From: an uncultured archaeon
GTDB lineage: Archaea; Iainarchaeota; Iainarchaeia; Iainarchaeales; GCA-2688035
DNA length: 64,000 nt
NCBI GenBank assembly: GCA_964354805.1
Contig: CAYHBD010000030.1
Location: forward strand, 6,800 to 70,799
Direction of reading: 5' to 3'
How positions within the stretch are numbered: the first letter of the stretch is position 1; the number at the start of each line of letters is the position of its first letter. Under the pieces are notes generated by a model. That model was not told the DNA's origin. It saw only the letters and a program-made list of their open reading frames with translations, and did not search any database. Made by a program: the position numbers and the translations under genes. Shown one piece after another: positions 9,709-58,106 of this stretch.

Positions 9709-10668
9709 TCAGCTTCTTGCAATTGAGGCGATTTCTTCAAGGCTTTGCGCTTTCTCAAACAGGCGCATTTTTTCTGGGTTCGATGCAAAAAACCTGACTG
9801 CCTGTGTCTTCATCCTGCCCAAATAAGCGCTGATGCCGAACTTTTTGCACAATTCAAGGTATTGCAGGAAAGCCTGCTCCCTGGACAGGAGGTTTGCGCC
9901 ATCAGGCGCGCTTTTCCCAAGGCTTTTTTCCAGCGGGAAAAAAGGCTTGTTGCCCAGAATTTCCGCAAAAATTCCGGGATTGCCTATTGCCGCACTGCCA
10001 ACCATTGCAGCATCACAGCCGGTCTTTTCAAGCATTCGCTCAAAGCTAGGCTTGTTGATTACACCGCCATTCCCTATTACAGGAATGCCAACAGCTTTCT
10101 TGACGCGCTTTATTGCCACAAAGTCAACCAGGCCCCTGTTTTCCTGCTTAATGGTTCGCCCATGCACAGCAATTGCCGAAGCGCCCGCTCTTTCAATCTG
10201 CTTTGCCAGCTTGATTGTGCGCAAAACATTAGGGTCAGACCTTATTTTTGCAGTAACAGGCTTTCCAAGGACATGCCAGCAGGAAATGATTTCGCAAATT
10301 CGCGCAGGCCTCCTCAAAAGCGCGACGCCTGCCCCCTGGTTAAGCACATTACCCGAAGGGCATCCCAGGTTCAAATCCAAAAAATCGAATTCCTTTTCAG
10401 CAATAAGCAGTTCAACCGCCTTTTTCATGCTTTCAACCCTTGCCCCAAAAACCTGCATTGCCAAAGGCCTGTCCTCACCGCAGGTCTGGGCAAGCCTTTT
10501 GACAGAAAGATTGTTCCTTATAAGGGCCTCAGAATTAATCATTTCCGAATAGCACAAGGAAGCGCCCTGCTCCCTGGCCAAAAGCCTGAAGGCAAGGTCA
10601 GTAACCCTGTACATTGGCGCCAAAACAAGCCTGTTTTCCATTTTTGTGCCGGCAATGCTGAAATCCAT
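9709..10668 (-). CDS. dus: tRNA-dihydrouridine synthase (Dus family)
   Basis: LAPMYRVTDLAFR, DLNLGCP and AVHGRT motifs. The start is set at MDFSIAG. The track ORF extends to 10764. Confidence 0.8.
   Translation of the reverse strand: MDFSIAGTKMENRLVLAPMYRVTDLAFRLLAREQGASLCYSEMINSEALIRNNLSVKRLAQTCGEDRPLAMQVFGARVESMKKAVELLIAEKEFDFLDLNLGCPSGNVLNQGAGVALLRRPARICEIISCWHVLGKPVTAKIRSDPNVLRTIKLAKQIERAGASAIAVHGRTIKQENRGLVDFVAIKRVKKAVGIPVIGNGGVINKPSFERMLEKTGCDAAMVGSAAIGNPGIFAEILGNKPFFPLEKSLGKSAPDGANLLSREQAFLQYLELCKKFGISAYLGRMKTQAVRFFASNPEKMRLFEKAQSLEEIASIARS
9908..9949. repeat. Hairpin-repeat family copy inside the Dus coding region, in frame
   Basis: GCGCTTTTCCCAAGGCTTTTTTCCAGCGGGAAAAAAGGCTTG. A 9-bp stem CTTTTTTCC/GGAAAAAAG. 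The core is near-identical to copies at 52784-52815 and 58038-58070. It encodes NKPFFPLEKSLGKS. Confidence 0.75.
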
Positions 10669-10831
10669 TACAAAAACAATACAGAAAAAGACTATATTCC
10701 AATGCCCTAATGCACAGGCTTTTGCCGGAAAGCAGTGAAAAACAAAGGCAAAACCCCAAGCCATCTTCGCTCAGCTTTTAATAAAAGCCGGCAAAAACAG
10801 CCTCGCTTTGCTCGGCGAGCTCGATGGAATA

Positions 10832-10946
10832 AGCCCCGGGAGGGATTTGAACCCTCGACCCCCGGCTATCTCGAATTTTTCTTTTCGCACGCCTTTTTCT
10901 AAAAGGCTTTTACGAGGTCGGTGCTCTACCACTGAGCTACCAGGGC
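10832..10946 (-). tRNA. tRNA-Thr (anticodon CGU) with a 43-nt canonical 37/38 intron
   Basis: Manual cloverleaf: acceptor GCCCTGG/CCGGGGC, D arm GCTC-AGTGGTA-GAGC, anticodon loop CTCGTAA after splicing, T arm GAGGG-TTCAAAT-CCCTC. BHB motif: central helix CTCG/CGAG flanked by 3-nt bulges TAA and ATA. Confidence 0.85.
10868..10910 (-). other. tRNA-Thr intron, made of hairpin-repeat family sequence
   Basis: Sense sequence AAAGCCTTTTAGAAAAAGGCGTGCGAAAAGAAAAATTCGAGAT, with a 7-bp hairpin GCCTTTT/AAAAGGC followed by GCGAAAAG. Confidence 0.8.
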
Positions 10947-11013
10947 GCTTCTTTTCTTTAAAGAAAATTGAATGCAAAACGCTTTTTAATCCCTTTTCCT
11001 TAATTGGTGTAGA

Positions 11014-11946
11014 ATGCCCAAGGATGACCAGCAAAAGGTTGAAGTTTTTCTGCGCGAATTTGTTTCAACTCTTACTGAACAACACGCAAAAGAAATTGAT
11101 TTTATTCTTCTTTTCGGCAGCGCTGCAAGAGGCGAATTTGTTCTGGGAAAAAGCGATGTGGATTTAATAATCCAAGTGAAAAGCGATGAAAAAAGAAAAG
11201 AGGTTGAAGCGTTTGCCGAAAAGGTTTTCTGGCAGCTTGACAGAAAGCACGGCATGCAGCTAAAGCGCGTTTGTAGCACCGGCATTGGGGCAAGCGTTTT
11301 GGAGAATGCAGTTAAAGCGCTTGAAGCCCGGGCGCGGTTGTACAAGCCATTTGAGGTTTTTGGCCCAAAAGACATTGACTGGCGCAGAGGCATGATTAAA
11401 AGGCTTGACTTGCTGCCGGGCGCTTTTCTGGTTGCAAGCCAGCTGACGCTTTTGTACAAAATGAAGAATGAGGGAAAAATTTTATTCGGCAGGGATATTA
11501 GAAAGGAAATAAGGCCGAGGTTCACGCTTTGGGAGAAGCTGAAAAGCCTTTTTGTTCCCCAAAGCATTTCTTTTGCAGCACTGGCACTTTCGCTTTTCTT
11601 GCCAAAAAAAGCAGTTGCTTATGCCGTAAAAGCAATTTTTTATGAGGTTGAATCAGTGAACCTTTTCCTGCAGAACAAAATACCGAAAAAAGGAAAGGCC
11701 TGCTTTTTTGCAAGGGCAACCGAATTCAGAGACCGGTTATTGGATGATCTGCGGTTCTACATTGAACTGCGTTTTGGTTTGCTTGGCGAACAAAAGCTTG
11801 CTTTTGTAAAAAAGGCTGCCGCAGTTAAAAAGAACGGCTTTCAGGGGGGCAGGGTTGCCGCACTGCGCTTTTGCTTTAATGCATTTTGGGTCATTTACAA
11901 CTGCAATTCAAACATTATCCTGAAAACAATTTTTGCAATTGCCTGA
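11014..11946 (+). CDS. Nucleotidyltransferase-domain protein (minimal NTase fold) with a C-terminal extension
   Basis: LFGSAARGEFVLGKSDVDLII matches the GS-x(9-10)-DxD NTase signature. Confidence 0.65.
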   Translation: MPKDDQQKVEVFLREFVSTLTEQHAKEIDFILLFGSAARGEFVLGKSDVDLIIQVKSDEKRKEVEAFAEKVFWQLDRKHGMQLKRVCSTGIGASVLENAVKALEARARLYKPFEVFGPKDIDWRRGMIKRLDLLPGAFLVASQLTLLYKMKNEGKILFGRDIRKEIRPRFTLWEKLKSLFVPQSISFAALALSLFLPKKAVAYAVKAIFYEVESVNLFLQNKIPKKGKACFFARATEFRDRLLDDLRFYIELRFGLLGEQKLAFVKKAAAVKKNGFQGGRVAALRFCFNAFWVIYNCNSNIILKTIFAIA

Positions 11947-12004
11947 AAAACCCCTAACAAAATGTTTAAATATTAGAAACCCGTTCTTTTATCAGGTGAT
12001 TTAA

Positions 12005-12517
12005 TTGAACCAGAGCGGACAGGCTTATAGTGTCTTCAAGTTGCTGATTGCCGCAATCATTGCAGTAGCAATCCTTTACATACTTATTTCAATAATCGGC
12101 GGAATCAATATTTTCGGCAGCGATGTTCAAACCGTTGCAAAGCAAATCATTCAAAAGCAGGTTGACATGCCTGGCCAGCTGGACACAAGCACAGCAGCCG
12201 TTTTCAAAGCAGGAACAAACCTGGCGCCAAGCGCACTGGTTGGAAACAGCGGCCTGACCCCAGACCAGATTTGCCTGTATAAGGGTGACCTGGTTGACAA
12301 CCAAGCAGTGGAAGTTACAGGTAGCACACTAATGCAAAACGGGACAACTGATTTAACAGTGAAAATAAGCGTCATGTGCCACAAGGCAAACGCTTTAGTG
12401 GATGCCCTTGAAGAAGTAGGATTGCCGATTGATTTTGGCGACACAACCACCGGAACTTGTGGATGCAACCTTGATACGCCCCAGAAATGCTGCGTGGTAA
12501 TGCTGAGATTTGCTTAA
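12005..12517 (+). CDS. Type IV pilin-like protein (class III signal peptide)
   Basis: N-terminus MNQSGQAYSVFKLLIAAIIAVAILYILISIIGG: a short charged leader, a G|Q site, then a hydrophobic helix. SD AGGTGA lies upstream of the TTG start. Confidence 0.55.
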   Translation: MNQSGQAYSVFKLLIAAIIAVAILYILISIIGGINIFGSDVQTVAKQIIQKQVDMPGQLDTSTAAVFKAGTNLAPSALVGNSGLTPDQICLYKGDLVDNQAVEVTGSTLMQNGTTDLTVKISVMCHKANALVDALEEVGLPIDFGDTTTGTCGCNLDTPQKCCVVMLRFA

Positions 12518-12556
12518 GCCCTTCTTTTTCTTTCTTTTTTTTCATTTTTGCTGTTA

Positions 12557-12582
12557 TTGGCTTATCCAAGCTTGTAAGCCAA
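12557..12582 (+). terminator. Candidate hairpin after the first pilin gene
   Basis: TTGGCTTA-N10-TAAGCCAA, a perfect 8-bp inverted repeat followed by an AT/T-rich tract. Confidence 0.3.
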
Positions 12583-12748
12583 TTAAATTTTCCTGCAATT
12601 TCTTAACTTTGAATACAAAACAATTAGTTTCAATTTACATTCAAAAAAATCGCATTAATAATTTCAATTTTTCAATTAAATGCCATTTAAGCGAAAACCC
12701 GCCTATCCAAAAAAATTAAATATAGCTTTTACCACAATTATTCTTATT

Positions 12749-12922
12749 ATGTTGGCAGTTGTTAAACGGGCGCTCGGCGAGAGGAGGGCTCAGAGTGAGT
12801 GGAGCAGCGTTTACATGCTGATTGTTTTAATTATCGCTGCCCTTCTTTTGATTGCGGTAATAAAGCCGATGTTCAAGCAAAGCCAGAGCATTGTGCAGAA
12901 AACACAGCCGAAAGCAAGTTAA
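12749..12922 (+). CDS. Small pilin-like protein (class III signal peptide)
   Basis: MLAVVKRALGERRAQSEWSSVYMLIVLIIAALLLIAVI: a basic leader, an A|Q site and a hydrophobic helix. The track ORF starts at 12680. Confidence 0.4.
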   Translation: MLAVVKRALGERRAQSEWSSVYMLIVLIIAALLLIAVIKPMFKQSQSIVQKTQPKAS

Positions 12923-13039
12923 AGAGCCCGAGGAAAAGGAATCCTTGGGAAAAAAAATTAAAAGGTGCAACTAAAATGCCGAACACAACACTGGCAAAGA
13001 GTGCCCAGGACCCAAAATGAATAATAAAGGTGCAAAGAA

Positions 13040-13861
13040 ATGCTGAACAGAAAAGGCCTTGCGAAGCAATTTTCCCAAAGCTTTTTTTCCGAAGGAAAAA
13101 AAGGCTTAGCAAAGCAATTTTTCCCAGGGGTTTTTTGCACGCGAAGCAATTTTCCCATCTTGCAAAACCCAAGGTTTTGCGAGACCTCGCAAAAGCGAAG
13201 CTTTTGCAAGGAGGCTTTTTTTGCAACGGCAAAAAAAGGCTTAAGCGAAAAAGGCCGAGCTGAAAGCCGTTTTCCCTGGGATTTTTTTGCAACAGCAAAA
13301 AAAGGCCAGGAGAGCGCGCCATTTGAGCTGCTGGTTGCTGTAATAATAATGGGCTTTGTCATATTCATTGGAACAAGTGTAATGCAGCAGGTAAATTGCG
13401 AGAAATGCAAGGGCGAAACCAATGCAAAGCTGGATCGAATGGCAACCGCGTTACAGAATGCTGACGAATCAGGCAGTATTCAACCAAACGTAAGTTTTTT
13501 TTTAAGCGGCTGCTTCAACCAACAGGAAGAAAAAATCTGGATTGAGGACGAAGACGATCCCCAAGTGTGTGCTGCCTATCATTGCGGTGAGAAGCAGTTA
13601 TGCACTTTGCTGAAATACTATGGTAATGGCTGCGGCGGGTTCAGCATCATAAAGTGCCTGGATATCACCCCTGACGCCGATTTTCCTTCCATATCAGGGG
13701 GCAGGTGCGAAGAAAGAGATGGAATGCAATTAGTGGATTTCGAGAAAAGGGAGGAGCCGATAGCAACAGGGGGCAACAAGCAGGGCAACTATTTGCTGTG
13801 GAACAAGACAGGGCAGGGCGACACTTTTTCAACAATCTGCGCTTACAGGAAAGAGGGTTGA
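13040..13861 (+). CDS. Cys-rich type IV pilin-like protein whose leader peptide carries a 249-nt repeat array
   Basis: ATG 13040 with SD AAGGTG. Removing 13059-13307 gives MLNRKGQESAPFELLVAVIIMGFVIFIG, a canonical class III signal peptide. The ORF also reads through the array without a stop. Confidence 0.6.
   Translation: MLNRKGLAKQFSQSFFSEGKKGLAKQFFPGVFCTRSNFPILQNPRFCETSQKRSFCKEAFFATAKKGLSEKGRAESRFPWDFFATAKKGQESAPFELLVAVIIMGFVIFIGTSVMQQVNCEKCKGETNAKLDRMATALQNADESGSIQPNVSFFLSGCFNQQEEKIWIEDEDDPQVCAAYHCGEKQLCTLLKYYGNGCGGFSIIKCLDITPDADFPSISGGRCEERDGMQLVDFEKREEPIATGGNKQGNYLLWNKTGQGDTFSTICAYRKEG
13059..13307. repeat. Array of hairpin-repeat family modules (249 nt) flanked by the direct repeat AAAAGGCC
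   Basis: AAAAGGCC occurs at 13051-13058 and 13300-13307. Perfect hairpins: 13081-13090/13094-13103 (10 bp), 13162-13169/13173-13180 (8 bp), 13215-13224/13229-13238 (10 bp), 13282-13290/13295-13303 (9 bp). Confidence 0.85.
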
Positions 13862-13868
13862 TTCAACC

Positions 13869-14531
13869 ATGCTTGGATTCACTTTAAGCAAACTGAATCT
13901 GCTGATTTTGGTGACAGCCTTGTTTGGGATAATTGCATTCTTTTTATTTACGCTAACAGACATGATGGTTGCCAGGTCGGCACAGCAAATGGTCAATGAC
14001 CTTGTTGAAAGAACCAGCGGCATTATGACACCGAGCGTTGACTGCTTTGAGGAAACGGTTACAATACCAGAGGAAATAACCTACTTCAGCGGAAAACGCT
14101 TCTATTACGTAATGAAGATATCAAGGGAGCCGGCTGAATACAACTCGGAATATCTAAGCAAATTGATTTTCAAGGTTGCGGCAAGAAAAGAGCAAACCAA
14201 ATTCATTGCAACAAATAGCTATGACATGAATGCAGAAATCATGCTTTACCAATGGCCTGTTGCAGAAATTAGAACTAACCTAAAAGAGCAAAGCAGCATT
14301 ATACTTGATCCAATGAACGAAACTACTGCAAGCAATTCAGTTAAGTTAATAAAAGAGGTTTATAATAGAAAAAATTTCCTGCACGTAATTGCCTGCAATA
14401 CCGACCAAGGGCAGTGTGAAATGAATGAGGGTTATGCAGGCTGCTGCGTAAAAAAATGGAGGGGCGTTGAATCAAGCTGCCTGCCGCCTGCAGAGAATTG
14501 CGAAAACTTGAGCTGCGATACAAGGGGGTAA
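13869..14531 (+). CDS. Pilin-like protein
   Basis: N-terminus MLGFTLSKLNLLILVTALFGIIAFFLF resembles a G|FTL prepilin motif followed by a hydrophobic helix. The C-terminal part is Cys-rich. Confidence 0.45.
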   Translation: MLGFTLSKLNLLILVTALFGIIAFFLFTLTDMMVARSAQQMVNDLVERTSGIMTPSVDCFEETVTIPEEITYFSGKRFYYVMKISREPAEYNSEYLSKLIFKVAARKEQTKFIATNSYDMNAEIMLYQWPVAEIRTNLKEQSSIILDPMNETTASNSVKLIKEVYNRKNFLHVIACNTDQGQCEMNEGYAGCCVKKWRGVESSCLPPAENCENLSCDTRG

Positions 14532-14536
14532 AAAAA

Positions 14537-15037
14537 ATGAAAAACGGGGGTTTTTTGGGTCCAATTGGGGATGATTTGCCGAGCCTGATTCCGCTGCTTT
14601 TTGCTTTAATGCTTTTTTTTTATGCTTTTACATCTGCTTGGAATAATTTTGACAGGAGGAATGAGGATTTTGCCGATGACCTGGCAGTGCTCAGGGCAAG
14701 CAATGCATTGAGGGGAAACAATTATATTGCGGGAATTGAAAAATTCAATGAAAACTGCGAGACAGCGAAAGGAACCCAGAGAATGCACTTTTTGGCCGGA
14801 TTGCTGCCCTTGCCTACAGGGAAAGATGAGCAATTTGTTGGAATTGATACTGAAAAAATAGTCAGCGGCGATCAAAGCTTTTTTGAAGACTTTCAATGCA
14901 GCAGCACTGAGGAAATACCCGTGCTGGAAAGCGAAAAAAGCGTTGTTAGGTTCTTTCCTGTTGCCTTGGAAACAAAAGAGGAAAACGACAAGTTTTATGT
15001 AAAGCCGATGTTGCTGGTGGTCATTGCATGGAAATAA
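14537..15037 (+). CDS. Pilin-like / membrane-anchored hypothetical protein
   Basis: MKNGGFLGPIGDDLPSLIPLLFALMLFFYAF. Start chosen at ATG 14537. The track ORF starts at 14498. Confidence 0.4.
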   Translation: MKNGGFLGPIGDDLPSLIPLLFALMLFFYAFTSAWNNFDRRNEDFADDLAVLRASNALRGNNYIAGIEKFNENCETAKGTQRMHFLAGLLPLPTGKDEQFVGIDTEKIVSGDQSFFEDFQCSSTEEIPVLESEKSVVRFFPVALETKEENDKFYVKPMLLVVIAWK

Positions 15038-15849
15038 AGCTTGGCGAAAAAGGTCCTGTTTTGCGAAGCCTATTTTCCCCAGGCTTTTGCAACAGCAAAA
15101 GGCTGTTGCGAAGCAAAACCCATTTCCCTGGGATTTTTTGCACGCGAAGCAATTTTCCCAAGGCTTTTTCACGAAGTGAAAAAGGCTTAAGCGAAAAAGG
15201 CCAGTCCAGTTTGACTGATTCCATGTTTTTCCTGGTAATAGCCAGCATTTTGAGCACTTGGCTTTTCTATTCAAGCGCAACCTACGGCCTGACAATAGAC
15301 CAGCAAATTTCAAGGCAGGGCAGGGAGGAATACACCAAGTCTGCGCTTGAAACAATTTTGTACAGCAGCGCGCCGAGGCAGGCAGGCCTTTCTTTGGAAG
15401 AAGCATCAGAGATTGACTACCTGCTTGCGGCAATAAAAGAGGACTACGCTGATGACACTGAACTGGATGAAACAAAAGCAATTCTTTTCCAGAACATAAA
15501 TGCCGTAATGCAGCCGCTTGCAACAAACAGCAACTACCTTTTCTACATATATATTGCTCAAAAAAATAAATTTGTTGTCACTTTTTTGTACGCAAGCGAA
15601 GCAAAAAACGATGACGGCTGGAGCTTAACCGGCAACAAAATTGTTTTTTCCTGCGTGCCGCCAAGCAAGCAGGCAGTGGAAGAATTCCTGCTTACGGTTG
15701 GCAGGATGTCTGTCAGCAACAGCAGAATTCAGCTGCTTGAATCAAAAGAGCCGGCTCCTGACAGATACGATGCCCTAATCACTTTAATCACTTGGATTCC
15801 AACGCCAGTTGATGAAAGCGACCTAAACTGCACTAAATTCACTGGCTGA
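15028..15849 (+). CDS. Type IV pilin-like protein whose leader peptide carries a 147-nt repeat array
   Basis: ATG 15028 with SD GGTGG. Removing 15056-15202 gives MEIKLGEKGQSSLTDSMFFLVIASILSTWLF. The ORF reads through the array in frame. Confidence 0.6.
   Translation: MEIKLGEKGPVLRSLFSPGFCNSKRLLRSKTHFPGIFCTRSNFPKAFSRSEKGLSEKGQSSLTDSMFFLVIASILSTWLFYSSATYGLTIDQQISRQGREEYTKSALETILYSSAPRQAGLSLEEASEIDYLLAAIKEDYADDTELDETKAILFQNINAVMQPLATNSNYLFYIYIAQKNKFVVTFLYASEAKNDDGWSLTGNKIVFSCVPPSKQAVEEFLLTVGRMSVSNSRIQLLESKEPAPDRYDALITLITWIPTPVDESDLNCTKFTG
15056..15202. repeat. Array of hairpin-repeat family modules (147 nt) flanked by GCGAAAAAGGTC / GCGAAAAAGGCC
   Basis: Direct repeats at 15044-15055 and 15191-15202. 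Hairpins at 15084-15090/15095-15101 and 15164-15172/15176-15184. The 27 nt at 15134-15160 are identical to 13131-13157. Confidence 0.85.
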
Positions 15850-20245: not shown

Positions 20246-20336
20246 TGCTTCCTATAGCCCTGCAGCAATTTATTATAAATTTTCCCTCACCCCATATTAT
20301 TATCCATGGACCCATAGCCTAGTGGATAGGGCAACT

Positions 20337-20370
20337 AAAGAGGTGAGTTTTTCAATTCTCTCTTTTGCAA
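20337..20370 (+). other. tRNA-Arg intron 1 (34 nt) at non-canonical position 29/30
   Basis: hBHBh' motif: outer helix AGG/CCT, central helix GCAA/TTGC, 3-nt bulges CTA and AAG, inner helix AAGAG/CTCTT. Confidence 0.75.
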
Positions 20371-20378
20371 GCCTCCTA

Positions 20379-20444
20379 AAGCCTTTTCTTTAGAAAAGAA
20401 AAGGCTTGCGAAAAGAAATTTTTCGCTCTGCAAAAAACGGGGCT
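20379..20444 (+). other. tRNA-Arg intron 2 (66 nt) at canonical position 37/38, made of hairpin-repeat modules
   Basis: Central helix CTCC/GGGG with bulges TAA and CTA. It contains a perfect 11-bp hairpin GCCTTTTCTTT/AAAGAAAAGGC and the hairpin GCGAAAA/TTTTCGC. Confidence 0.8.
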
Positions 20445-20481
20445 AGCAGTAGGTCGTGGGTTCGATTCCCACTGGGTCCGT

Positions 20482-21868: not shown

Positions 21869-22603
21869 CTAAATCCTGAGCGCGAATGTTTCCCTCTTTT
21901 TCTGTTTCCCTGTCCTGTCAACTCCAATCAGCTTGAATGTTTTCGTTGCATCTGTTTTGAATTCTTTTTCCAGCTGCTTTACAGCCAAGGCAGCTGCTTT
22001 TTTTGATCCGACTATTGCATCGATTGAGTTTTTTTTCTGTGTTGCGGAAACAATTGCGGCCAGACCGTCTCTTTTTTGCAGGGATGCGAGCAATTGCCTC
22101 AGCCTGTTGAAAGCAGCAGCTGCTTTTTCCCCCCTAAGCTGCACTATTGCCTCAAAGTAATTGCTTTTCAGCTTCATGCAAGCATCGCACTGCATTGCGG
22201 GAAAAGAGATTGTTGTTTTCCTTTCAACCAGAACAGGCGTGTTTTCAATTACGCCCTTTGCCGTTACGATTGCCTGCATTTCCTTTTCACTCAACCGCTG
22301 CAATTCAACTGACAGGGCAGCATCTGTCAGCTCCTTAACCTTGCATTTTTTTTTGACGAACTGCTTCAATAGTTCCAAGTCAAAAGCGTGCATTTTCCCT
22401 GAAAGCAAAATTTTTCCGCATTGCTTGCAGCGCTGCAACTCGATTTTTTCAGGCAACTGCAGAAGCGTGTGCTCTTTCAGGAAGCACTGGAGGCAGCTGC
22501 CCCTTACAAAAAGGCTGTCTGTTGCACCGCAGCTCGGGCAAAATAATCTGCCCAAAGCCTTTTTGCCTTTTGGCAAAAAGCCTTGGGAAAAGTTGCTTCG
22601 CAT
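21869..22603 (-). CDS. NMD3-family protein (archaeal homolog of the ribosome export adaptor)
   Basis: N-terminal double zinc motif FCPSCG...CLQCF...CKQCGK. Start set at ATG 22603, 4 nt after the upstream stop. The track ORF extends to 22645. Confidence 0.7.
   Translation of the reverse strand: MRSNFSQGFLPKGKKALGRLFCPSCGATDSLFVRGSCLQCFLKEHTLLQLPEKIELQRCKQCGKILLSGKMHAFDLELLKQFVKKKCKVKELTDAALSVELQRLSEKEMQAIVTAKGVIENTPVLVERKTTISFPAMQCDACMKLKSNYFEAIVQLRGEKAAAAFNRLRQLLASLQKRDGLAAIVSATQKKNSIDAIVGSKKAAALAVKQLEKEFKTDATKTFKLIGVDRTGKQKKRETFALRI
22551..22601. repeat. Hairpin-repeat family copy forming the first 16 or so codons of the NMD3-like gene
   Basis: Gene-sense sequence GCGAAGCAACTTTTCCCAAGGCTTTTTGCCAAAAGGCAAAAAGGCTTTGGG, with a 9-bp hairpin CTTTTTGCC/GGCAAAAAG. 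It encodes RSNFSQGFLPKGKKALG, similar to the peptides encoded by the pilin arrays. Confidence 0.75.
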
Positions 22604-47793: not shown

Positions 47794-48168
47794 TTATTTT
47801 TTCTTTTCTTCTTTTTCTGTTTCTTTTACTATGTCTGTTGCTGCCCCTTGCTTTGATTCAATCTCTGATTTCAGCTTGTTCAGCTTGTTCACAAGGCTGT
47901 CTTCCTGCTTTTGCAGTGTTTTTACCCTTAAATCAGTTGATTCCTTTTTTTCCTCTAATTCCTTTTTCACAACTGGGGTGTCTGTCTGGATTAATATGTT
48001 TCCGACAGCTTTGTAGACGCGCTTTTCCTTTGTTTTTGCCAGCTCGTCCAGTGCCTGCTGCAATGCCGAACTCTGCATCTGCAGCTGCTGTTTTTGCCCT
48101 GAAACAGTGAACAGCTGTGACCTGCTTCTCTCGAATTCCCTGGCTTTCAATTCAATTCCTTCAACCAT
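47794..48168 (-). CDS. pfdB: Prefoldin beta subunit
   Basis: Coiled-coil / beta-hairpin / coiled-coil layout with VYKAVGNILIQ, at the usual position at the end of the exosome superoperon. Confidence 0.8.
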   Translation of the reverse strand: MVEGIELKAREFERSRSQLFTVSGQKQQLQMQSSALQQALDELAKTKEKRVYKAVGNILIQTDTPVVKKELEEKKESTDLRVKTLQKQEDSLVNKLNKLKSEIESKQGAATDIVKETEKEEKKK

Positions 48169-48171
48169 TTG

Positions 48172-48519
48172 CTATTCCTCCAAAATGCTTTTTGACAAAA
48201 TAATCGAATTAACTATGCTGTTAACGCTTGCCCTCAGTGCGGTTGCATCTGATGCATTAATACCTATTTGCACTGCATTGTTTTTAATTTTAACATGTGT
48301 TGCGCTTCTCTTAGCATGCACTGCATTTAATTCTGGACCAATTGCTTTCAAAAAAATGCCTGCTTCTTTTTTCGGCACAGCAATGCTGATGCTCAAATCA
48401 AAGCCTTTTTTGCTTAAGCCTTTTGCTTCGCAAAACCCTTGGGAAATTTGCTTCGCCTGCAAAAAACCCTTGGGAAAAGGGTTTTGCTTACGCAAAACAT
48501 ATTCCGGTGAATGCTGCAA
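48172..48519 (-). CDS. pcc1: KEOPS subunit Pcc1-like protein with repeat-derived N-terminal codons
   Basis: The C-terminal two thirds, FDLSISIAVPKKEAGIFLKAIGPEL...IGINASDATALRASVNSIVNSIIL, match the Pcc1/CTAG pattern. TTG start 48519 with SD GAGGT 8 nt upstream. Confidence 0.65.
   Translation of the reverse strand: MQHSPEYVLRKQNPFPKGFLQAKQISQGFCEAKGLSKKGFDLSISIAVPKKEAGIFLKAIGPELNAVHAKRSATHVKIKNNAVQIGINASDATALRASVNSIVNSIILSKSILEE
48412..48497. repeat. Hairpin-repeat family copy in the 5' end of the Pcc1-like gene
   Basis: Gene-sense sequence TTTTGCGTAAGCAAAACCCTTTTCCCAAGGGTTTTTTGCAGGCGAAGCAAATTTCCCAAGGGTTTTGCGAAGCAAAAGGCTTAAGC, followed by AAAAAAGGC. Confidence 0.8.
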
Positions 48520-48525
48520 GCGCGA

Positions 48526-48666
48526 TTACCTCGCTTTGATGTTTTTTGCAATCGGTTCCCTGACTTTGTACATTATTTTGTAAGCGCAGACTGGGCAGCG
48601 CAGGATTCCTTCAGGCAGGGCGTTGATTACTTCACCGCATTTAGCGCATTTGTAAGGCATTCTCAT
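48526..48666 (-). CDS. rpoP: DNA-directed RNA polymerase subunit P (Rpo12)
   Basis: MRMPYKCAKCGEVINALPEGILRCPVCAYKIMYKVR is the zinc-ribbon pattern of RpoP. The track ORF's 5' extension overlaps the L37Ae tail. Confidence 0.8.
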   Translation of the reverse strand: MRMPYKCAKCGEVINALPEGILRCPVCAYKIMYKVREPIAKNIKAR

Positions 48667-48682
48667 TACCTCCCAAAAAAAA

Positions 48683-49333
48683 TTATTTTTTCTTTCGCTC
48701 TTCTTTCTTTTCTTTTGCTTTCTCTTTTCCTTTTGTTTCCTTTTCAATTCTCTTTTCTTTTCGTTCTCTTGGCGCAATTTTTTCTTTTCTTTCTTTGCCG
48801 ATTTCTTTTTCTTCGTGTTCCCCTAATTGCTTTTCCTCACTGCCGATTTGTTTTTCTTCTGGCTTGCGCTCTTTCCATTCTATTGTTTCTTTTCCTTGTC
48901 CGAAAAAGTCCCTTCTTCCTTTTCCTCGCTCTCTCCATTCCCTTCTTTCCCTGTAGATTTCCCTGCTTGCTCTTCCGCCCCATTCCCTTTTTCCCTCTGC
49001 CCCGCTTTCATCGCCTGCCTCTTCTTCTGCCCAGTCTTCTTTTGTGCTTAGCAGTTCTTTCATTGAAGGCAAAAAGCTTCTCTGGGCAACCATTTTTTGC
49101 ACAATCGAGCCAGGCAAAGTGGTGGGCAAATACGCGCCTCCTGCGAATGTGTTATCGCATTTCCTGCAGCTATAGATGCCTGGCGCTTTTCTCCTCACTC
49201 TCTCGGCTCCGCAGAACGGGCATGGGTAGTATTTGTGCTGCTTGCTTTCAATTTTAAGCAGGCTTTTTCTTATGCCAACGCCGTATCTTGCCCCATAGCG
49301 CCCAGCGGTTTTAACTTTTAAAGTGTTGCCCAT
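48683..49333 (-). CDS. rpl37ae: Ribosomal protein L37Ae (eL43) with a K/E/R-rich C-terminal extension of about 130 aa
   Basis: The N-terminal 85 or so aa, TAGRYGARYGVGIRK...YPCPFCGAERVRRKAPGIYSCRKCDNTFAGGAY, are the canonical eL43 zinc ribbon. The rest is a charged low-complexity tail. Confidence 0.85.
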   Translation of the reverse strand: MGNTLKVKTAGRYGARYGVGIRKSLLKIESKQHKYYPCPFCGAERVRRKAPGIYSCRKCDNTFAGGAYLPTTLPGSIVQKMVAQRSFLPSMKELLSTKEDWAEEEAGDESGAEGKREWGGRASREIYRERREWRERGKGRRDFFGQGKETIEWKERKPEEKQIGSEEKQLGEHEEKEIGKERKEKIAPRERKEKRIEKETKGKEKAKEKKEERKKK

Positions 49334-51933: not shown

Positions 51934-52638
51934 TTACCTTTCGCCTTCCTGCACGATTTTTGTTTCGCATGCCCCGTGGCATACTGCGTTCAATTCATTC
52001 AGAAAATCCTGTTTCATTCCGCCTGGCAATTCAACAACCGCAACCAGGCTGCCGTCGTTCTGCCATTGCTCTTTTACCACCTTGAACCTGTGCACTGTTG
52101 CAGCGCCCCTGCCGCTGTGTTCTGCGCCGATTTTCACTGCAATCTGCAAATGCTGCATTGAAATCGGCAGAATCCTCTTGAGCTCCTTTAAAATCTCCGG
52201 CAGCTGCTCTTCAACCGATTTGTTTTCATCAACCCTGATTTTCGCTTCAATCAATGCATTTTCAATCCTTTTGGGCGGATGCGGTGCTGCTGTCTGGGGA
52301 TTGATCGCGTTCCTTGCAATGAATTCAACCACTTCCCTTTCCCTTGCTTCCTTCATTGCTTTCCTTTGCTCTGTTGTTAAATGCAGTATGCCCTGCAAAA
52401 TTATTTTTTTTGCGATTACCGCAACATCTGTTGAACCAAAGACCTTGTTCAATGCAGCTGGGCTTTGCGCTTCGCCCTTGCTCGCGTCCTTGAATACTGT
52501 GTCCACTGCAAGCAAATCGCTTAAGCCCACTTGTTTCCCTTTTTTTAACTGCATTGCAAGGTCTGGGTCAACCAATATTTCAAATTTTTCTCCGAATGAT
52601 TCCAGCCTTGCAGTAACAGCATTCTCCAAGTTAACCAT
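51934..52638 (-). CDS. sdo1: SBDS-family ribosome maturation protein
   Basis: Conserved N-terminus ARLESFGEKFEILVDPD and its superoperon position. Confidence 0.85.
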   Translation of the reverse strand: MVNLENAVTARLESFGEKFEILVDPDLAMQLKKGKQVGLSDLLAVDTVFKDASKGEAQSPAALNKVFGSTDVAVIAKKIILQGILHLTTEQRKAMKEAREREVVEFIARNAINPQTAAPHPPKRIENALIEAKIRVDENKSVEEQLPEILKELKRILPISMQHLQIAVKIGAEHSGRGAATVHRFKVVKEQWQNDGSLVAVVELPGGMKQDFLNELNAVCHGACETKIVQEGER

Positions 52639-52689: not shown

Positions 52690-52830
52690 TTTGAAAAAAT
52701 CAATGCTTGCAAAGCAATTGCCCTTTCCCCCATAATGCCAAGCTAAAGAATTATTTGTTTTTGTTCCATTGCTTGGCATTATGCCAAGGCTTTTTTCCCG
52801 CAGGAAAAAAGGCTTATCCAAAGAAAATTG
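52690..52830. repeat. Composite palindromic element in the psmA-SBDS spacer, including a hairpin-repeat family core
   Basis: Hairpin at about 52701-52720. A perfect 13-bp stem CATAATGCCAAGC (52731-52743) / GCTTGGCATTATG (52771-52783). Family core CCAAGGCTTTTTTCCCGCAGGAAAAAAGGCTT (52784-52815). Confidence 0.7.
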
Positions 52831-52855: not shown

Positions 52856-53581
52856 TTACTTTTTCCCTAAAATAGACTTGAGCTTTTGCTTTGGCACTTT
52901 TTCAAACTTTTTCCCTTCCTCAATCAAAGCAAAATCAATTCTATTAACATCAAGTTTCTCCTTTTCATCCAGGCCTTTCTGCAGAGCCCTCGAAATCAAC
53001 TCAATCCCTTCCTCCAAAGGCATGTTCTCCTTATAGTCTTTCTCAAAGAATTTCATTGCTTCCTTCTTCTCTCTTCCGATCGCGATCGCGGTGTATTCAG
53101 CCAATGCACCGCTTGGCTCTGTCTCAAACAGCCTCTTTCCAGAATCATCAACTCCGCCAATGATAAAAGAAACGCCGAACGGTCTCATGCCAGCGTACTG
53201 CGTAAACAGCTGCTTAACAGCGCACAGTCTTTTCACCAATGTCTCCACTTCAATCTTCTCCTCGTAATACATTTTGTTCTCCTGCGCTTCTTTCCTCGCA
53301 ATCTGCACCAGTCTCCTGGCATCCCCAACCAAGCCGCTGCTTATTGCGCCAATGTGGTCATCAACCTTGAATACTTTTTCAATGCTGTCAGCCAAAATCA
53401 GCCTTGAAACAATCTTCTTGTCAGCGCCAAACAAAATGCCCTTATCATAAACAATTGCCGCGCCCATTGTTCCCTGCTCAACAATCTTGCTCGCGTACTC
53501 AACCTGGTAAAGCCTTCCATCAGGGCTGAACATGGTTGAAACCCTGTCGTAAGCGCTGCTCCTCCTGTTCATTGGATACAT
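52856..53581 (-). CDS. psmA: Proteasome alpha subunit
   Basis: YDRVSTMFSPDGRLYQVEYA N-terminal signature. Confidence 0.9.
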   Translation of the reverse strand: MYPMNRRSSAYDRVSTMFSPDGRLYQVEYASKIVEQGTMGAAIVYDKGILFGADKKIVSRLILADSIEKVFKVDDHIGAISSGLVGDARRLVQIARKEAQENKMYYEEKIEVETLVKRLCAVKQLFTQYAGMRPFGVSFIIGGVDDSGKRLFETEPSGALAEYTAIAIGREKKEAMKFFEKDYKENMPLEEGIELISRALQKGLDEKEKLDVNRIDFALIEEGKKFEKVPKQKLKSILGKK

Positions 53582-55522: not shown

Positions 55523-55623
55523 TCTTGCTCAAGAAAAAAATAGTTAAAAAGGATTAAAAAACAACCTAAAAAATTCAGAAAAAAAATAATTTGCCTTGTC
55601 TGCATATTGTTGGAATACTGCGT

Positions 55624-56196: not shown

Positions 56197-56302
56197 TTCA
56201 ATCACTTAAAAAATCATTGAAAAAAGAAGCATTTAATGGCTTGATTTTTAATAAAAATTAATTAATTGCAAGCCTTTTTAAAGGTTAGTAATACAAATCA
56301 AT

Positions 56303-56725: not shown

Positions 56726-56821
56726 AGGCAGCAGGATTCTAATCTAATCAATTGCCTTGTTTGTTTTTTTCACTGCACTCTGAGTTAATTAATTCCATTA
56801 TTTCCTTTTTTTGCTTTTTCT

Positions 56822-56935
56822 AGATCGCTTTATACGAGTTATAGTTCTCTTAGACCGCGGGAATCCGCCTGCTACTATAAGTCCACCACAAGGTGGTCGC
56901 GAGCCCCTGCCATGGCATACGCCTCTGGCCATAAA
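56822..56935. ncRNA. GC-rich structured island, candidate small RNA of unknown class
   Basis: Nested helices: GATCGC/GCGAGC, TTATAGT/ACTATAA (7 bp), GCGG-GAAT-CCGC and CCACC-ACAA-GGTGG. It lies in an otherwise AT-rich 290-nt intergenic region. The strand is not determined. Confidence 0.2.
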
Positions 56936-57013
56936 ATCACCTACAAAATATCAGCAGAAGTGATATATAAATAGCAATGATTGATTTGCGTTAAAAATAT
57001 GTTTTAAATCAAA

Positions 57014-57979
57014 TTGCTGGAAAAGAATCTTGCCATGCAGCAGAAATGCGTTGAATGCGGAAAAAAGGCAGTCATCTCTTTGCCCTATGGTCCGCATCGT
57101 TTCTGCAAACAGCATTTTCTGCACTTTTTTGAGAAGAGGGTTAGGCGCACAATCAGGGAGAACAGGCTGGTGCAGGGCAGAGAGAAGCTGGTTGTTGCAT
57201 GCAGCGGTGGCAAGGACAGCTCGACAGCACTTTTTTTGGTTAACAAGATTTTTTCAAAAAGCAATCCTGTGGAAGCGCTTTTGATTGACGAGGGAATAGC
57301 AGGCTACAGGGACAAGGCGCTTGCAACAGCTGAAAGGAACTGCAATGAATGGAATGTGCAGTTCAAAAGGGTTTCGTTCAAGGAAGAATTCGGCTTCACA
57401 ATGATGGACGTAATGCGCAAAACAGGCGCGGAAAAGCTGATTGGCAGCAGCTGCTCTTTCTGCGGAGTGCTGAGGAGGCGCTTGATGAACAAATACGCGA
57501 AGGAAATGCACGCTGGAAAGCTTGTTACAGGCCATAACTTGAATGACGAAGTGCAGAGCATTCTGATGAATGTTTTTGACGCTGATTTGGCCAGGTATGC
57601 AAGGCTCGGGCCAATGATCGGCGCACTGAAACTCCGCGGTTTTGTGCCGAGGATAAAACCATTGTATTTGTGCCCTGAAAAGGAGGTTATTTCTTTTGCC
57701 CAAATGCAGGGAATTGGGTACTGCGGGGTAAAATGCTGCCCTTTCCACTGGCAGGCGAAGAGAAACGATTTCAGGGCAATGGTGAATCGCTTTGAAGAAA
57801 AATACCCTGGAACAATGTTTTCAATAATGCGCTTCTTTGAGCAGACAAAGCCGCTGGTTGCAAAAGGATTGGGAAAAGCAAGGGAATTGAAATTGAATGC
57901 ATGCATTAAGTGCAGTGAACCAACCAGCGGAAAAATTTGCAGGGCATGCCAGCAGATTGACAAAATAATTAAAAATTAG
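57014..57979 (+). CDS. tRNA 2-thiolation PP-loop ATPase (TtuA/NcsA family)
   Basis: PP-loop ACSGGKDSS with N-terminal and C-terminal CxxC zinc-finger pairs (CVECG...CKQH; CIKCS...CRAC). Confidence 0.8.
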   Translation: MLEKNLAMQQKCVECGKKAVISLPYGPHRFCKQHFLHFFEKRVRRTIRENRLVQGREKLVVACSGGKDSSTALFLVNKIFSKSNPVEALLIDEGIAGYRDKALATAERNCNEWNVQFKRVSFKEEFGFTMMDVMRKTGAEKLIGSSCSFCGVLRRRLMNKYAKEMHAGKLVTGHNLNDEVQSILMNVFDADLARYARLGPMIGALKLRGFVPRIKPLYLCPEKEVISFAQMQGIGYCGVKCCPFHWQAKRNDFRAMVNRFEEKYPGTMFSIMRFFEQTKPLVAKGLGKARELKLNACIKCSEPTSGKICRACQQIDKIIKN

Positions 57980-57985
57980 GAAATT

Positions 57986-58106
57986 TGGGCCCGACCGGGA
58001 TCGAACCGGCGACCTCCACCATGTTGAAGACCTTTTTCCCAAGGCTTTTTTCCGCAGGAAAAAAGGCTTTGTCGAGGTGGCGTCATAACCGCTAGACCAC
58101 GAGCCC
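57986..58106 (-). tRNA. Intron-containing tRNA, probably tRNA-Val (GAC). The anticodon loop assignment is uncertain.
   Basis: Acceptor GGGCTCG/CGGGCCC, anticodon stem CCACC/GGTGG, variable loop AGGTC, T arm GCCGG-TTCGATC-CCGGT. The loop 5' part is TCGACA, followed by a 48-nt insert. The best model gives loop TCGACAT, with C at position 33. Confidence 0.65.
58022..58069 (-). other. Intron of the tRNA-Val-like gene, made of a hairpin-repeat family core
   Basis: The plus strand reads CCTTTTTCCCAAGGCTTTTTTCCGCAGGAAAAAAGGCTTT. The core is near-identical to 9917-9948 and 52784-52815. Confidence 0.7.

Follow-up and report, generated by a model that had tools for sequence, protein, structure and literature searches.

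Within a 64,000-nt stretch of DNA from an uncultured archaeon (hereafter the window), the same short hairpin repeat occurs in tRNA introns, between genes and inside protein-coding sequences, which raises the question of what this unit is and how it came to occupy such different places. The family is genuine, with copy numbers well beyond chance expectation. AAAGCCTTGGGAAAA, with up to two mismatches, has 15 matches in the window against 1.30 expected, and GGGAAAATTGCTTCGC, with up to three mismatches, has eight against 2.3; neither count was reached in any of 100 shuffles. An independent repeat search of the window also recovered the family (as D2, D14, D15 and I1-I9). Outside the window, the unit is present in L004, the closest genome relative, and an exact-pattern scan matched at least 120 metagenome contigs; a pattern scan of 2.9 million viral contigs returned no match. 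The ten loci named in the initial annotation all hold the modules as described there, and the near identity of the cores at 9917-9948, 52784-52815 and 58038-58070 was confirmed from the sequence. Its central proposal, a dispersed hairpin family common to genes and tRNA introns, is supported; three contrary outcomes (no further copies, the same peptide segments in orthologues, out-of-frame copies in intact genes) were tested and none occurred.

One unit is about 45-60 nt long and reads AAGCC-T(4-7)-variable stem/loop-A(4-7)-GCCTTGGGAAAA; after this comes a second hairpin, small and G+C-rich, which often has a loop of the TTCG/GAA type and reads GCGAAGC on the opposite strand. T-run and A-run are of equal length in 137 of 163 copies, and these 163 copies hold 108 different inner sequences; the stem sequence differs among copies and the pairing is kept. 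In a length-matched subset 99.1% of cells were paired, with GC-to-CG swaps, a value reached by none of 500 shuffles, and second-hairpin stems of at least 5 bp are present in 52% of copies compared with 11% of shuffles. A C.C / G.G mismatch in the hairpin is invariant. Units are found singly or as head-to-tail arrays, and the periods of intergenic arrays (44, 47, 50, 54, 55, 56, 58, 59, 60 and 73 nt) include all three residue classes. The 3' flank (A)AGCGAAAA(A)GG, initially listed as a further module, did not hold up, since it is mostly a duplicated piece of pilin genes (K-G codons before the cleavage site). Copies in the window are listed in Table 1.

Table 1. Copies of the hairpin unit and one associated intron in the window
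Feature	Positions	Strand	Gene and basis of assignment
Dus insert, 54 nt, in frame	9889..9942	-	CDS 9709-10641 minus; protein and DNA alignments, 4 relatives
tRNA-Thr(CGU) intron, 43 nt, position 37/38	10868..10910	-	gene 10946..10832; Rfam tRNA match 53.7 bits, 46-nt insertion
Partial copy (..AATCCTTGGGAAAAAAAA)	12932..12957	+	motif match, 2 mismatches
Pilin gene 1 leader array, 249 nt, about 4 units	13059..13307	-	CDS 13040-13861 plus; family alignment
Second pilin leader array, 147 nt, 3 units	15056..15202	-	CDS 15028-15849 plus; comparison with L127
tRNA-Arg(CCU) intron 1, 34 nt, position 29/30	20337..20370	+	strict hBHBh' motif GCAA[CT|A]..TTGC[AA|G] (BHB scan)
tRNA-Arg(CCU) intron 2, 66 nt, position 37/38	20379..20444	+	gene 20308-20480; sequence and fold
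NMD3 insert, 48 nt, single unit	22553..22600	+	CDS 21869-22603 minus; orthologue alignment
Pcc1 insert, 99 nt, about 2-3 units	48400..48498	+	CDS 48172-48519 minus; orthologue P0010/L131
Single intergenic unit	52769..52815	-	motif match and sequence; neighbour genes known
tRNA-Val(GAC) intron, 48 nt, position 37/38	58022..58069	-	gene 58106..57986; Rfam tRNA match 45.8 bits, 54-nt insertion

The three tRNA genes, introns included, had been called correctly. In these genes the copies stand in sense orientation, with the start of the unit at the 5' splice site, and the unit arms provide the inner helix of the splicing motif; in predicted folds the 5' arm pairs with GGGAAAA and its tail, adjoining the splice sites. 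The tRNA-Val intron starts exactly with AAGCC, and its 5' arm can pair with GGGAAAAAGGUCUU in the fold. The tRNA-Thr intron and the partial copy, which is intergenic and about 80 nt upstream of pilin gene 1, are related to the family, though as weak or degenerate members; the former is a short relative of the unit (AAAGCC-T4-AG-A5-GGC-GTGCGAAAAG) with a central helix CUCG/CGAG read from the sequence. Intron 2 of tRNA-Arg also belongs to the family, not as a standard unit but as a variant subfamily (AAGCC...GGCTTGCGAAAAG), in which GCGAAAA..UUUUCGC comes after a perfectly paired 13-bp hairpin (AAGCCUUUUCUUU/AAAGAAAAGGCUU) and the central helix is CUCC/GGGG. Intron 1 of the same gene has no copy of the unit and is given for context. 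Within 160 nt of a T-loop motif, 32 copies are on the same strand and nine on the opposite strand, against about seven expected. The tRNA copies are probably removed by the tRNA splicing endonuclease. Introns differ between related strains whose tRNA exons are identical. At the intron position of tRNA-Thr, the L056 orthologue has 131 nt that include a canonical unit, and the L127 orthologue of tRNA-Arg, with identical exons, is missing intron 1 and has 17-18 nt at the position of intron 2.

Comparison with orthologues that have empty sites shows the copies in Dus, NMD3, Pcc1 and the pilin leaders to be lineage-specific insertions. The copies in the first three genes stood, with the revised boundaries of Table 1. 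In Dus, the insert is part of the linker that follows the TIM barrel, just behind the end of PDB and Pfam matches at residue about 228, and is missing in four relatives and in PDB homologues; the unit itself (AAGCC..GGCGCA) spans 9895-9948 in sense to the gene (orientation B). The NMD3 unit, which directly follows the ATG, has orientation A, antisense to the gene. The encoded peptide is RSNFSQGFLPKGKKAL; orthologues P0002-P0005 begin M(K/S)(G/L)(R/N)LFCP, without the insert. Empty sites are seen in L128, L129 and L130, and NMD3 has empty-site orthologues for two separate insertion sites. The Pcc1 insert, also antisense, sits after codon 7 between 9-nt direct repeats (GTTTTGCGT / GATTTGAGC), and the protein has 115 aa compared with 82 aa in the orthologue P0010/L131 (MQHPPEYDLRISIAVP), the empty target being GATTTGCGC. 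Empty sites were also found for an L037/L048 membrane protein and for Elp3, by comparison with PDB 6iad.

The pilin genes, identified by a class III signal-peptide motif and family alignment with no Pfam hit, belong to a family whose canonical N-terminus is MLNRKGQESAPFELL. In pilin gene 1, the array lies between MLNRKG and QESAPFELL with its units antisense to the gene (orientation A), one of them with a nested insertion, and is flanked by the direct repeat AAAAGGCC. Its deletion gives back the exact N-terminus of P0022 and P0023. This site is empty in the close relatives P0016/P0017 and holds 27 extra residues in P0012/P0015, about 92 in P0014 and 81 nt in L056. The second array lies between MEIKLGEKG and QSSLTDSMFF, with flanks GCGAAAAAGGTC / GCGAAAAAGGCC; the array of L127 at this site is 96 nt long, and the repeats that flank it co-vary, with AAAAAGGGC on either side. 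The insert lengths measured in coding sequences of the window and its relatives (54, 48, 69, 48, 189, 99, 249, 81, 147, 96 and 57 nt) are all multiples of three, and a survey by crude ORF calls, inspected by eye, found no out-of-frame copy within an intact gene.

Taken together, these copies are rather probably short non-autonomous, mobile or selfish palindromic units of a DPANN (Iainarchaeota/Diapherotrites-like) lineage. New copies would come from copy-and-paste of whole units into A-rich targets like the unit's own 5' end (AAA, AAG, AAGCCT, GGCCTTTT), and insertion would leave flanking direct repeats of variable length. The insertion sites do resemble this A-rich end, and the repeats range from 3 to about 12 nt; such variable length, with the similarity of target and end, suggests microhomology-guided template switching or core-site recombination on folded single-stranded DNA and argues against a fixed-stagger transposase. 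Arrays would afterwards grow, shrink and be replaced quickly. Copies persist between genes, in tRNA genes in the sense direction, and in coding sequences only at lengths of 3n, in permissive places such as the cleavable pilin leader, extreme N-termini and inter-domain linkers. Turnover is rapid: the pilin arrays and the tRNA-Thr and tRNA-Arg introns differ between strains with flanks about 90-96% identical. A Pfam scan of 58 window ORFs yielded no enzyme of the transposase, integrase or reverse transcriptase type, and no mobilisation gene recurred in about 790 kb of loci. The window and loci likewise gave neither a mobilising enzyme nor an intermediate, nor any autonomous parent of the unit. 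Thus, the term 'mobile' is based on presence/absence polymorphism and copy number.

The kept hairpins, and compensatory differences between L127 and L128 in the internal unit of NMD3, could reflect a host function and not selfish spread. The unit might then be a host cis-element (a bidirectional oligo-T terminator, a 3'-end stabilising hairpin or a protein-binding site), abundant through selection for that function, with genic and tRNA copies as by-products; this is possible and considerably less probable. Many intergenic copies adjoin a stop codon, with TAA overlapping AAGCC (L032, L046, L075, L081), and T-runs of at least 4-7, the archaeal termination signal, occur on both strands. Covariation in the hairpins fits this explanation as well, and the invariant mismatch suggests protein recognition. 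However, copies lie in operons and essential genes (Dus, NMD3, Elp3, psmA-SBDS gap), where termination would be harmful; in the last case, the single intergenic unit, in sense orientation and with the second hairpin TTGGCATAATGCCAA, separates the proteasome-alpha gene (52856-53581) from the SBDS gene (51934-52638) of the exosome superoperon. Intergenic copies have no strong orientation bias relative to neighbouring genes, and a regulatory site would not be expected to occur in arrays of 2-5 identical units, or to be present in one and absent from another of two near-identical strains.

Alternatively, excised tRNA introns bearing the unit could be circularised, reverse-spliced or reverse-transcribed, and reintegrated, which would seed new introns and genic copies and, through rolling-circle copying, the intergenic arrays. 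The sense-strand bias in tRNA genes, the head-to-tail arrays and the variable flanking duplications, like those of target-primed insertion, agree with such a route. In addition, tRNA-Arg intron 1 has AAAGAGGTGA and CTCTT in common with the single intron of its L127 orthologue, where their order is permuted; a circle reopened at another point would give this pattern. We nevertheless consider it unlikely. Array units have the generic second hairpin at their end, but the tails of tRNA introns are complementary to the anticodon loop of the respective tRNA; the arrays are therefore not multimerised introns. Moreover, both orientations are present outside tRNAs, the stems are 97% Watson-Crick with a weak excess of G.T (11) over A.C (5), and neither the window nor the loci showed a reverse transcriptase.

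For the genic copies, splicing has to be weighed. They could be bulge-helix-bulge (BHB) introns, cut from mRNA by the tRNA splicing endonuclease with religation of the exons, and hence untranslated. Introns of this type are on record in archaeal mRNA, in the account of PMC2738675; the tRNA introns of the same genome are made of the unit, and once the inserts are taken out, the pilin leaders again have a perfect class III signal peptide. Even so, such splicing is very improbable. Splicing imposes no constraint to 3n lengths, yet at least 11 measured genic inserts obey it (chance about (1/3)^11), and arrays of four different lengths are in frame with the ancestral pilin ATG. A scan that does recover tRNA-Arg intron 1 found no strict or boundary-matching BHB motif at the coding inserts; six N-terminal copies are antisense to the tRNA orientation, and no split gene was found that deletion of a copy would restore. 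Because their flanks have no BHB motif and the unit is almost free of stop codons, the coding copies are most likely translated, as judged from frame conservation only. The initial annotation had stressed that coding copies keep the frame without stops. The former holds, and the latter is intrinsic to the unit, which has 4.7 of six frames open (shuffled units, 2.1; random genomic segments, 3.2); thus only the 3n lengths are informative.

A protein-level likeness, that is, a conserved peptide repeat or low-complexity linker common to unrelated proteins, could account for the similar F/K/G-rich peptides encoded (e.g. AKQFSQGFF, KSLGK), but it is refuted by frame and strand heterogeneity, since both strands of the DNA are read and at least two frames are used, and by the occurrence of the unit in tRNA introns and non-coding DNA and the lack of the segments in orthologues. 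Since one unit sequence is read in several frames and both orientations across genes, conservation is at the nucleotide level.

The mobile or selfish unit favoured here has partial likenesses among known systems. Rickettsia palindromic elements (RPE; Ogata et al., 2000; 2002, as summarised in PMC10969869) are likewise a dispersed palindromic family in a small genome, with in-frame copies that leave the ORFs of unrelated housekeeping genes unbroken, with non-coding copies, and with no associated transposase known in that summary. The likeness to RPE drawn initially is therefore sound as regards an in-frame dispersed hairpin family, and does not extend to the manner of reading: an RPE family is described there as encoding one conserved peptide in one frame, whereas the archaeal unit is read in several frames and both orientations. 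RPE are also bacterial and longer (about 100-150 bp), and the archaeal units differ from them further in their tandem arrays, their variable stem with covariation and their occurrence as tRNA introns. Prokaryotic MITEs, including archaeal ones (Sulfolobus, Haloquadratum; PMC10969869), reach high densities in some DPANN genomes according to PMC10969869 and PMC11602168. As characterised in these sources, they too are small, non-autonomous, multicopy and mostly intergenic, with some in-frame genic insertions and flanking direct repeats. In contrast, the unit is far shorter and has no terminal inverted repeats apart from its hairpin, no related autonomous IS and no fixed-length target-site duplication.

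REP / BIME elements, mobilised by RAYT (IS200/IS605-like Y1 transposases; PMC3733652), likewise combine a short, imperfect palindrome with a variable stem and a conserved tag at the hairpin foot, and occur in clustered arrays; it is plausible by analogy that the archaeal units are recognised as single-stranded hairpins, given their invariant mismatch. Their tag is GTAG or CGTC instead of AAGCC, their arrays are alternating and extragenic only, whereas the archaeal ones are head-to-tail and also genic, and no RAYT/TnpA was found in the window or 790 kb of loci. To our knowledge, BHB introns of the cbf5 type are the only archaeal precedent for an intervening sequence in both tRNA and protein-coding genes. 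These introns (cbf5, crenarchaeal pre-mRNA), as presented in PMC2738675, share with the unit the use of one sequence type in both gene classes; genic copies of the unit, unlike them, have no BHB at their borders and only 3n lengths, and so behave as translated insertions.

Closest on the tRNA side is the intron 'transposition' proposed for Thermoproteales (Fujishima et al., 2010, cited in PMC4033280), where similar introns in many tRNA species, at canonical and non-canonical positions within one archaeal lineage, are taken there as a sign of recent intron gain. In that citing account the similar sequences are found among tRNA introns, whereas the DPANN unit also occurs in intergenic arrays and genes, and its abundance outside tRNA genes points to a DNA repeat as the source. 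As the initial annotation had supposed, no description of the hairpin family was found in the searchable literature, and the unit is apparently a hitherto undescribed archaeal equivalent of palindromic repeats with in-frame insertion into genes. The link of such repeats to tRNA introns is new, and the family could help explain the origin of archaeal tRNA introns.

The modules described in the initial annotation are present at all ten of the loci it listed, and the family was recovered independently by a repeat finder (repeats D2, D14, D15 and I1-I9). Its most conserved stretch, AAAGCCTTGGGAAAA, has 15 matches in the window with up to two mismatches against 1.30 expected, a count reached by none of 100 dinucleotide-preserving shuffles; GGGAAAATTGCTTCGC has 8 matches against 2.3 expected. 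In orientation B, the strand reads AAGCC, T(4-7), a variable self-complementary core, A(4-7), GCCTTGGGAAAA, another, smaller hairpin (such as GCGCCTGATGGCGC, TTGCTTCGCAA or GCCTTCGGC) and a final A. The reverse complement, termed orientation A, includes the GCGAAGCAATTTTCCCAAGGC motif of the initial annotation. Coordinates and insertion sites are collected in the table.

Anatomy was analysed on the window and related DNA, where 163 copies match the exact pattern and have 108 different inner sequences. The T-run and the A-run are equally long in 137 of the 163 copies and within one base of each other in 155. Pairing of the inner core proceeds inwards from its ends, with a mean of 2.65 nested pairs versus 0.76 in shuffles, and leaves loops of 2-4 nt. 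A second-hairpin stem of at least 5 bp is found in 52% of copies versus 11% of shuffles. In a length-matched subset, standard pairs fill 99.1% of cells, with GC-to-CG swaps present, a value reached by 0/500 shuffles. At its foot, hairpin 1 has a C.C mismatch, which is G.G on the complementary strand; this mismatch was built into the search pattern and is found in all window copies. A second conserved module, CGCCCTGTTGGGTGCAAGCG, is nested in the hairpin 1 loop at several unrelated loci (in L004 and L010, and also in L034 and L097), which suggests elements within elements. Rfam gave no match over the repeats other than to tRNAs, even with the E-value cut-off set at 1. The T/C-rich low-complexity repeats D1/D5/D6 are K/E-rich protein tails read on the other strand and are unrelated to the hairpin family.

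Location and sequence features of repeat copies, host genes and neighbouring loci (window coordinates unless a relative's locus is named; BHB, bulge-helix-bulge; central helices read from sequence)
Feature	Location	Orientation	Insertion site or detail
Dus copy	9889-9942	B	AAGCCT
Pilin-like copy	13059-13307	A	
Pilin-like copy	15056-15202	A	
Pilin K-G codons		opposite strand	GGCCTTTT
NMD3 N-terminal copy	22553-22600	A	
NMD3 internal site			AAG
Pcc1 copy	48400-48498	A	
Elp3 copy	L096	B	CAGCCTTTT
Filled site	L037		AAA
tRNA-Thr(CGU)	10946..10832		BHB central helix CUCG/CGAG
tRNA-Thr intron	10868-10910		
tRNA-Arg(CCU)	20308-20480		BHB central helix CUCC/GGGG
tRNA-Arg intron 1	20337-20370		
tRNA-Arg intron 2	20379-20444		
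tRNA-Arg(CCU) of a relative	L127:12299-12389		
tRNA-Val(GAC)	58106..57986 (-)		BHB central helix UCGA/UCAA, one mismatch
tRNA-Val intron	58022-58069		
Four-unit intergenic array	L004:12640-12865		
Nested module	L004:12703-12760		
Nested module	L010:1272-1326		
tRNA 3' end duplication	L056:2460-2570		
Pilin-like gene cluster	12005-15849		class III signal-peptide-like N-termini
Repeats D1/D5/D6	47794-48824		
LAGLIDADG_3 ORF	39344-40270 (-)		308 aa
Ribosomal protein L37ae gene	48683-49333 (-)		216 aa
MacB/FtsX-type ABC permease genes	34941-36173 and 36363-37562		tandem paralogues

Further copies were found well beyond the window. A metagenome scan with the exact pattern AAGCCTTTTN{2,32}AAAAGCCTTGGGAAAA matched at least 120 stretches, while the same scan of 2.9 million viral contigs gave 0 matches. 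The family is also present in L004, an archaeal contig whose Dus is 80% identical to that of the window (71% for L001, from a Candidatus Iainarchaeum MAG), where it includes a four-unit intergenic array. Head-to-tail arrays occur at many loci, with periods of 44-73 nt. By its Dus relatives, the window belongs with the Iainarchaeota/Diapherotrites-like DPANN archaea, and the homologues of the pilin-like proteins carry the NCBI label Candidatus Diapherotrites. A search for contigs encoding the proteasome subunit gave no match.

The claim that copies lie in frame within protein-coding genes was borne out by comparison with orthologues, in which empty sites were found for the Dus, NMD3, Pcc1 and pilin inserts. 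At least 11 genic inserts were measured, and all their lengths (54, 48, 69, 48, 189, 99, 249, 81, 147, 96 and 57 nt) are multiples of three; the periods of intergenic arrays represent all three residue classes. No gene interrupted out of frame was found in ORF-flank screens of the copies, the first output of which contained many spurious ORFs, and the split-gene candidates proved on inspection to be gene-end/gene-start pairs or low-complexity ORFs. The absence of stop codons, also put forward in the initial annotation, carries little weight alone. A unit leaves 4.7 of six frames open, compared with 3.2 in random segments of the genome and 2.1 once units are shuffled, and is thus intrinsically near stop-free. 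One unit can be read in several ways (AKQFSQ or RSNFP; KPFFP or SLLPS) and on both strands, which indicates that conservation acts at the nucleotide level.

In Dus, 17-18 residues of the window protein are missing from four relatives. The DNA alignment gives an insert of exactly 54 nt, directly after a pre-existing AAGCCT and just past the TIM barrel, at the end of the PDB and Pfam matches. NMD3 orthologues begin M(K/S)(G/L)(R/N)LFCP, and the window gene adds 48 nt right behind the ATG. The relative's locus L127 has an independent net insert of 69 nt at this N-terminal site and, in addition, a 189-nt internal array of three identical 57-nt units and one older unit; the internal site holds a single 48-nt unit in L128 and is empty in L129 and L130. 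The window Pcc1 has 115 aa versus 82 aa in its orthologue P0010 from L131 (MQHPPEYDLRISIAVP), and the 99-nt insert lies between direct repeats of 9 nt derived from the target GATTTGCGC. A nearby out-of-frame ATG had raised the idea that this copy is a 5' UTR, but P0010 sets the start at TTG 48519, with the insert in frame. Elp3 of L096 has about 28 residues inserted at the native QPF site when compared with PDB 6iad, and a filled site in L037 differs from its empty counterpart in L048 by 57 nt. Other genic copies lie in a membrane protein in L102 and at the N-terminus of a methyltransferase in L055. All six antisense (orientation A) genic copies are N-terminal, including four in the window, and the gene-interior copies (Dus in the window; L127, L128, L096 and L102) are all sense; the N-terminal copy of L055, in orientation B, is the exception.

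Without their inserts, the two insert-bearing pilin-like genes of the window read MLNRKGQESAPFELL and MEIKLGEKGQSSLTDSMFF, the former being letter-for-letter identical to the N-terminus of the family members P0022 and P0023. The 67 homologues are mostly about 180-187 aa long, and no Pfam match was obtained for the pilin-like proteins, even with inserts removed. The leader site is empty in the close relatives P0016/P0017 and holds 27 extra residues in P0012/P0015, 83 in the window and about 92 in P0014; all variants are in frame with the ancestral ATG and end KG before the cleavage-site Q. The inserts at the two window pilin sites measure 81 nt in L056 (first site) and 96 nt in L127 (second site). 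The ORF at 12005, which starts LNQSGQAYSVFKLLIAAIIAV, carries no insert and serves as an internal control. Class III signal peptide leaders are cleaved off, and the pilin leader would for that reason be a natural safe harbour, able to grow from 6 to nearly 100 residues.

The perfect signal peptides left once the pilin inserts are deleted prompted the alternative that genic copies are BHB introns, spliced from the mRNA. A search for pairs of 3-nt bulges separated by a 4-bp helix, which recovers the strict hBHBh' motif of the 34-nt tRNA-Arg intron 1, detected no motif whose cuts match the ends of the inserts in Dus, NMD3, Pcc1 or the pilin-like genes. As spliced copies would need no rule of three and no BHB lies at these borders, the alternative was rejected, and we infer from the sequences that genic copies are probably translated.

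ARAGORN detected only the intron-less tRNA-Ala, one of the four window tRNAs, and the Rfam tRNA model added tRNA-Thr(CGU) and tRNA-Val(GAC), each with a long anticodon-loop insertion. The tRNA-Arg(CCU) with two introns proposed in the initial annotation was confirmed by reading the sequence, and its intron 1 by the BHB scan. The outer or inner helices of the window motifs are relaxed, whereas the copies in loci L123 and L010 fold into full motifs. With the copies defined loosely (208 in all), a T-loop motif lies within 160 nt on the same strand in 32 and on the opposite strand in 9, with about 7 expected. In tRNA genes, the unit begins at the predicted 5' splice site behind nucleotide 37 (A|AAGCC), and this site is used across isoacceptors for Val, Arg, Ser, Leu, Ile, Pro and Gln; units also lie at non-canonical positions, in the D-loop (L083) and the T-loop (L069 and L111). 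Folding further predicts an alternative structure for L123, L010 and the window tRNA-Val, in which the 5' arm AAGCCUUUU.. pairs with GGGAAAA and the following tail; the two splice-site bulges then have a long helix immediately between them, like those of a canonical BHB.

Introns also turn over rapidly between strains. The tRNA-Thr intron is 43 nt in the window versus 131 nt, with a canonical unit, in L056, with flanks about 90% identical. The tRNA-Arg(CCU) genes of the window and L127 have identical exons and different introns, namely 34 nt at 29/30 and 66 nt at 37/38 in the window versus a single 17-18-nt intron at 37/38 (CTCTTCCAAAGAGGTGA) in L127. Both AAAGAGGTGA and CTCTT occur in the L127 intron and in window intron 1, with their order permuted, a pattern that reopening of a circular intron elsewhere would give. 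The 3' ends of tRNA genes are duplicated beside elements at several loci (L047, L092, L065/L044 and L056), over 12 nt (GTCGGACCCGTA), 21 nt (GTTCGAATCCTCCTCCCTGCA) and, after tRNA-Thr in L056, 19 nt; long target duplication and capture of exon fragments are the alternative explanations. U33 is near-universal in tRNAs. The window tRNA-Val(GAC) has C33, which also gives the C.A mismatch in its splicing-motif central helix; possible readings are an impaired gene and a tolerant enzyme.

Tentatively, the repeat unit could be an intron-generating mobile element that creates, replaces and lengthens tRNA introns in this lineage, with circular intron RNA possibly re-supplying copies, a proposal to which we give somewhat less than even credence. 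The same unit that lands in frame in genes would then also land in A-rich tRNA loops (A37/A38, the D-loop and the T-loop), where its own arms would provide the helix adjoining the cut sites and so let the endonuclease splice it out at once or soon after. The gain of tRNA introns is a long-standing question in archaeal biology, and a single unit serving as both dispersed DNA repeat and tRNA intron body, in intron-variable strains, offers a concrete, testable route.

Filled and empty sites differ by whole units (48, 54 or 57 nt). Addition would take place at sites resembling the A-rich 5' end of the unit, either by microhomology-guided template switching or by core-site recombination on folded single-stranded DNA. 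From site to site, the flanking direct repeats measure 3, 3, about 6, 8, 9 and about 12 nt; judged from sequence, this variability and the 5'-end-like sites would fit either process and not a fixed-stagger transposase. GCGAAGC is a very stable DNA mini-hairpin, and its occurrence on the A strand is, together with the invariant mismatch, compatible with a single-stranded-DNA intermediate. Stem mismatches are G.T in 11 cases versus A.C in 5, an excess too small to assign the selected strand or to choose between RNA- and DNA-level selection. Among the 58 window ORFs, Pfam searches identified no gene for a transposase, an integrase or a reverse transcriptase. When the 1,853 ORFs of the loci (about 790 kb) were clustered all against all, no recurrent mobilisation candidate emerged, nor did the cognate autonomous IS or transposase expected of a MITE. 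Recombination genes in these screens were limited to one for an Xer-like recombinase close to Dus, in conserved synteny, and one for an integrase adjoining a tRNA in L045. The window also contains a free-standing ORF with a LAGLIDADG_3 homing-endonuclease-like domain (E = 2.7e-14), outside any obvious intron or intein. Among its other genes, that for L37ae is extended beyond the 85-aa domain by a long K/E-rich tail, and the ABC permease pair, 78% identical over 149 nt at the 5' ends (repeat D3), is an ordinary gene duplication.

The family occurs in ultra-small DPANN genomes, in which strong streamlining is assumed to act on every gene. In practical terms, the units inflate ORFs and hide tRNA genes from standard finders, and they will confuse the annotation of DPANN MAGs.

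The functionally closest known system is that of the Rickettsia palindromic elements (RPEs; PMC10969869). The likeness drawn in the initial annotation holds for the dispersed palindromic repeat and its many in-frame, ORF-preserving insertions in unrelated genes. It fails for size, and for the single peptide, frame and orientation. RPEs measure about 100-150 bp, with one conserved peptide per family in one frame and orientation, whereas the present units are 45-60 nt and are used in several frames and on both strands. The family is also archaeal, two to three times shorter, arrayed and tied to tRNA introns, and it is set apart from RPE-1 to RPE-10 by their description. As archaeal BHB introns, the tRNA copies qualify, with two 3-nt bulges and a 4-bp helix at the exon-intron borders, but the genic copies, with lengths in multiples of three and no border motif, do not. 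Intron 'transposition' is known in tRNAs of Thermoproteales (PMC4033280), though it is not known there with the same unit dispersed through intergenic DNA and genes. REP/BIME elements of the RAYT system share a palindrome and a conserved foot with the family, but they are extragenic imperfect palindromes of 20-40 nt with a GTAG or CGTC tag and a RAYT gene flanked by REPs, whereas the present tag is AAGCC, copies lie in genes and tRNAs, and no Y1 transposase was found among the screened ORFs. MITEs are bounded by terminal inverted repeats and by target-site duplications whose length does not vary, while the only inverted repeat of the present unit is the internal hairpin and its flanking repeats vary from 3 to about 12 nt. 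CRISPR arrays, built of identical repeats and unique spacers of similar length, differ from these contiguous head-to-tail units without spacers. Literature searches retrieved no description of the family, the motif strings matching only unrelated primers or sgRNAs. This family appears to be the first parallel in Archaea to the in-frame insertion of palindromic repeats into genes that the RPEs represent.
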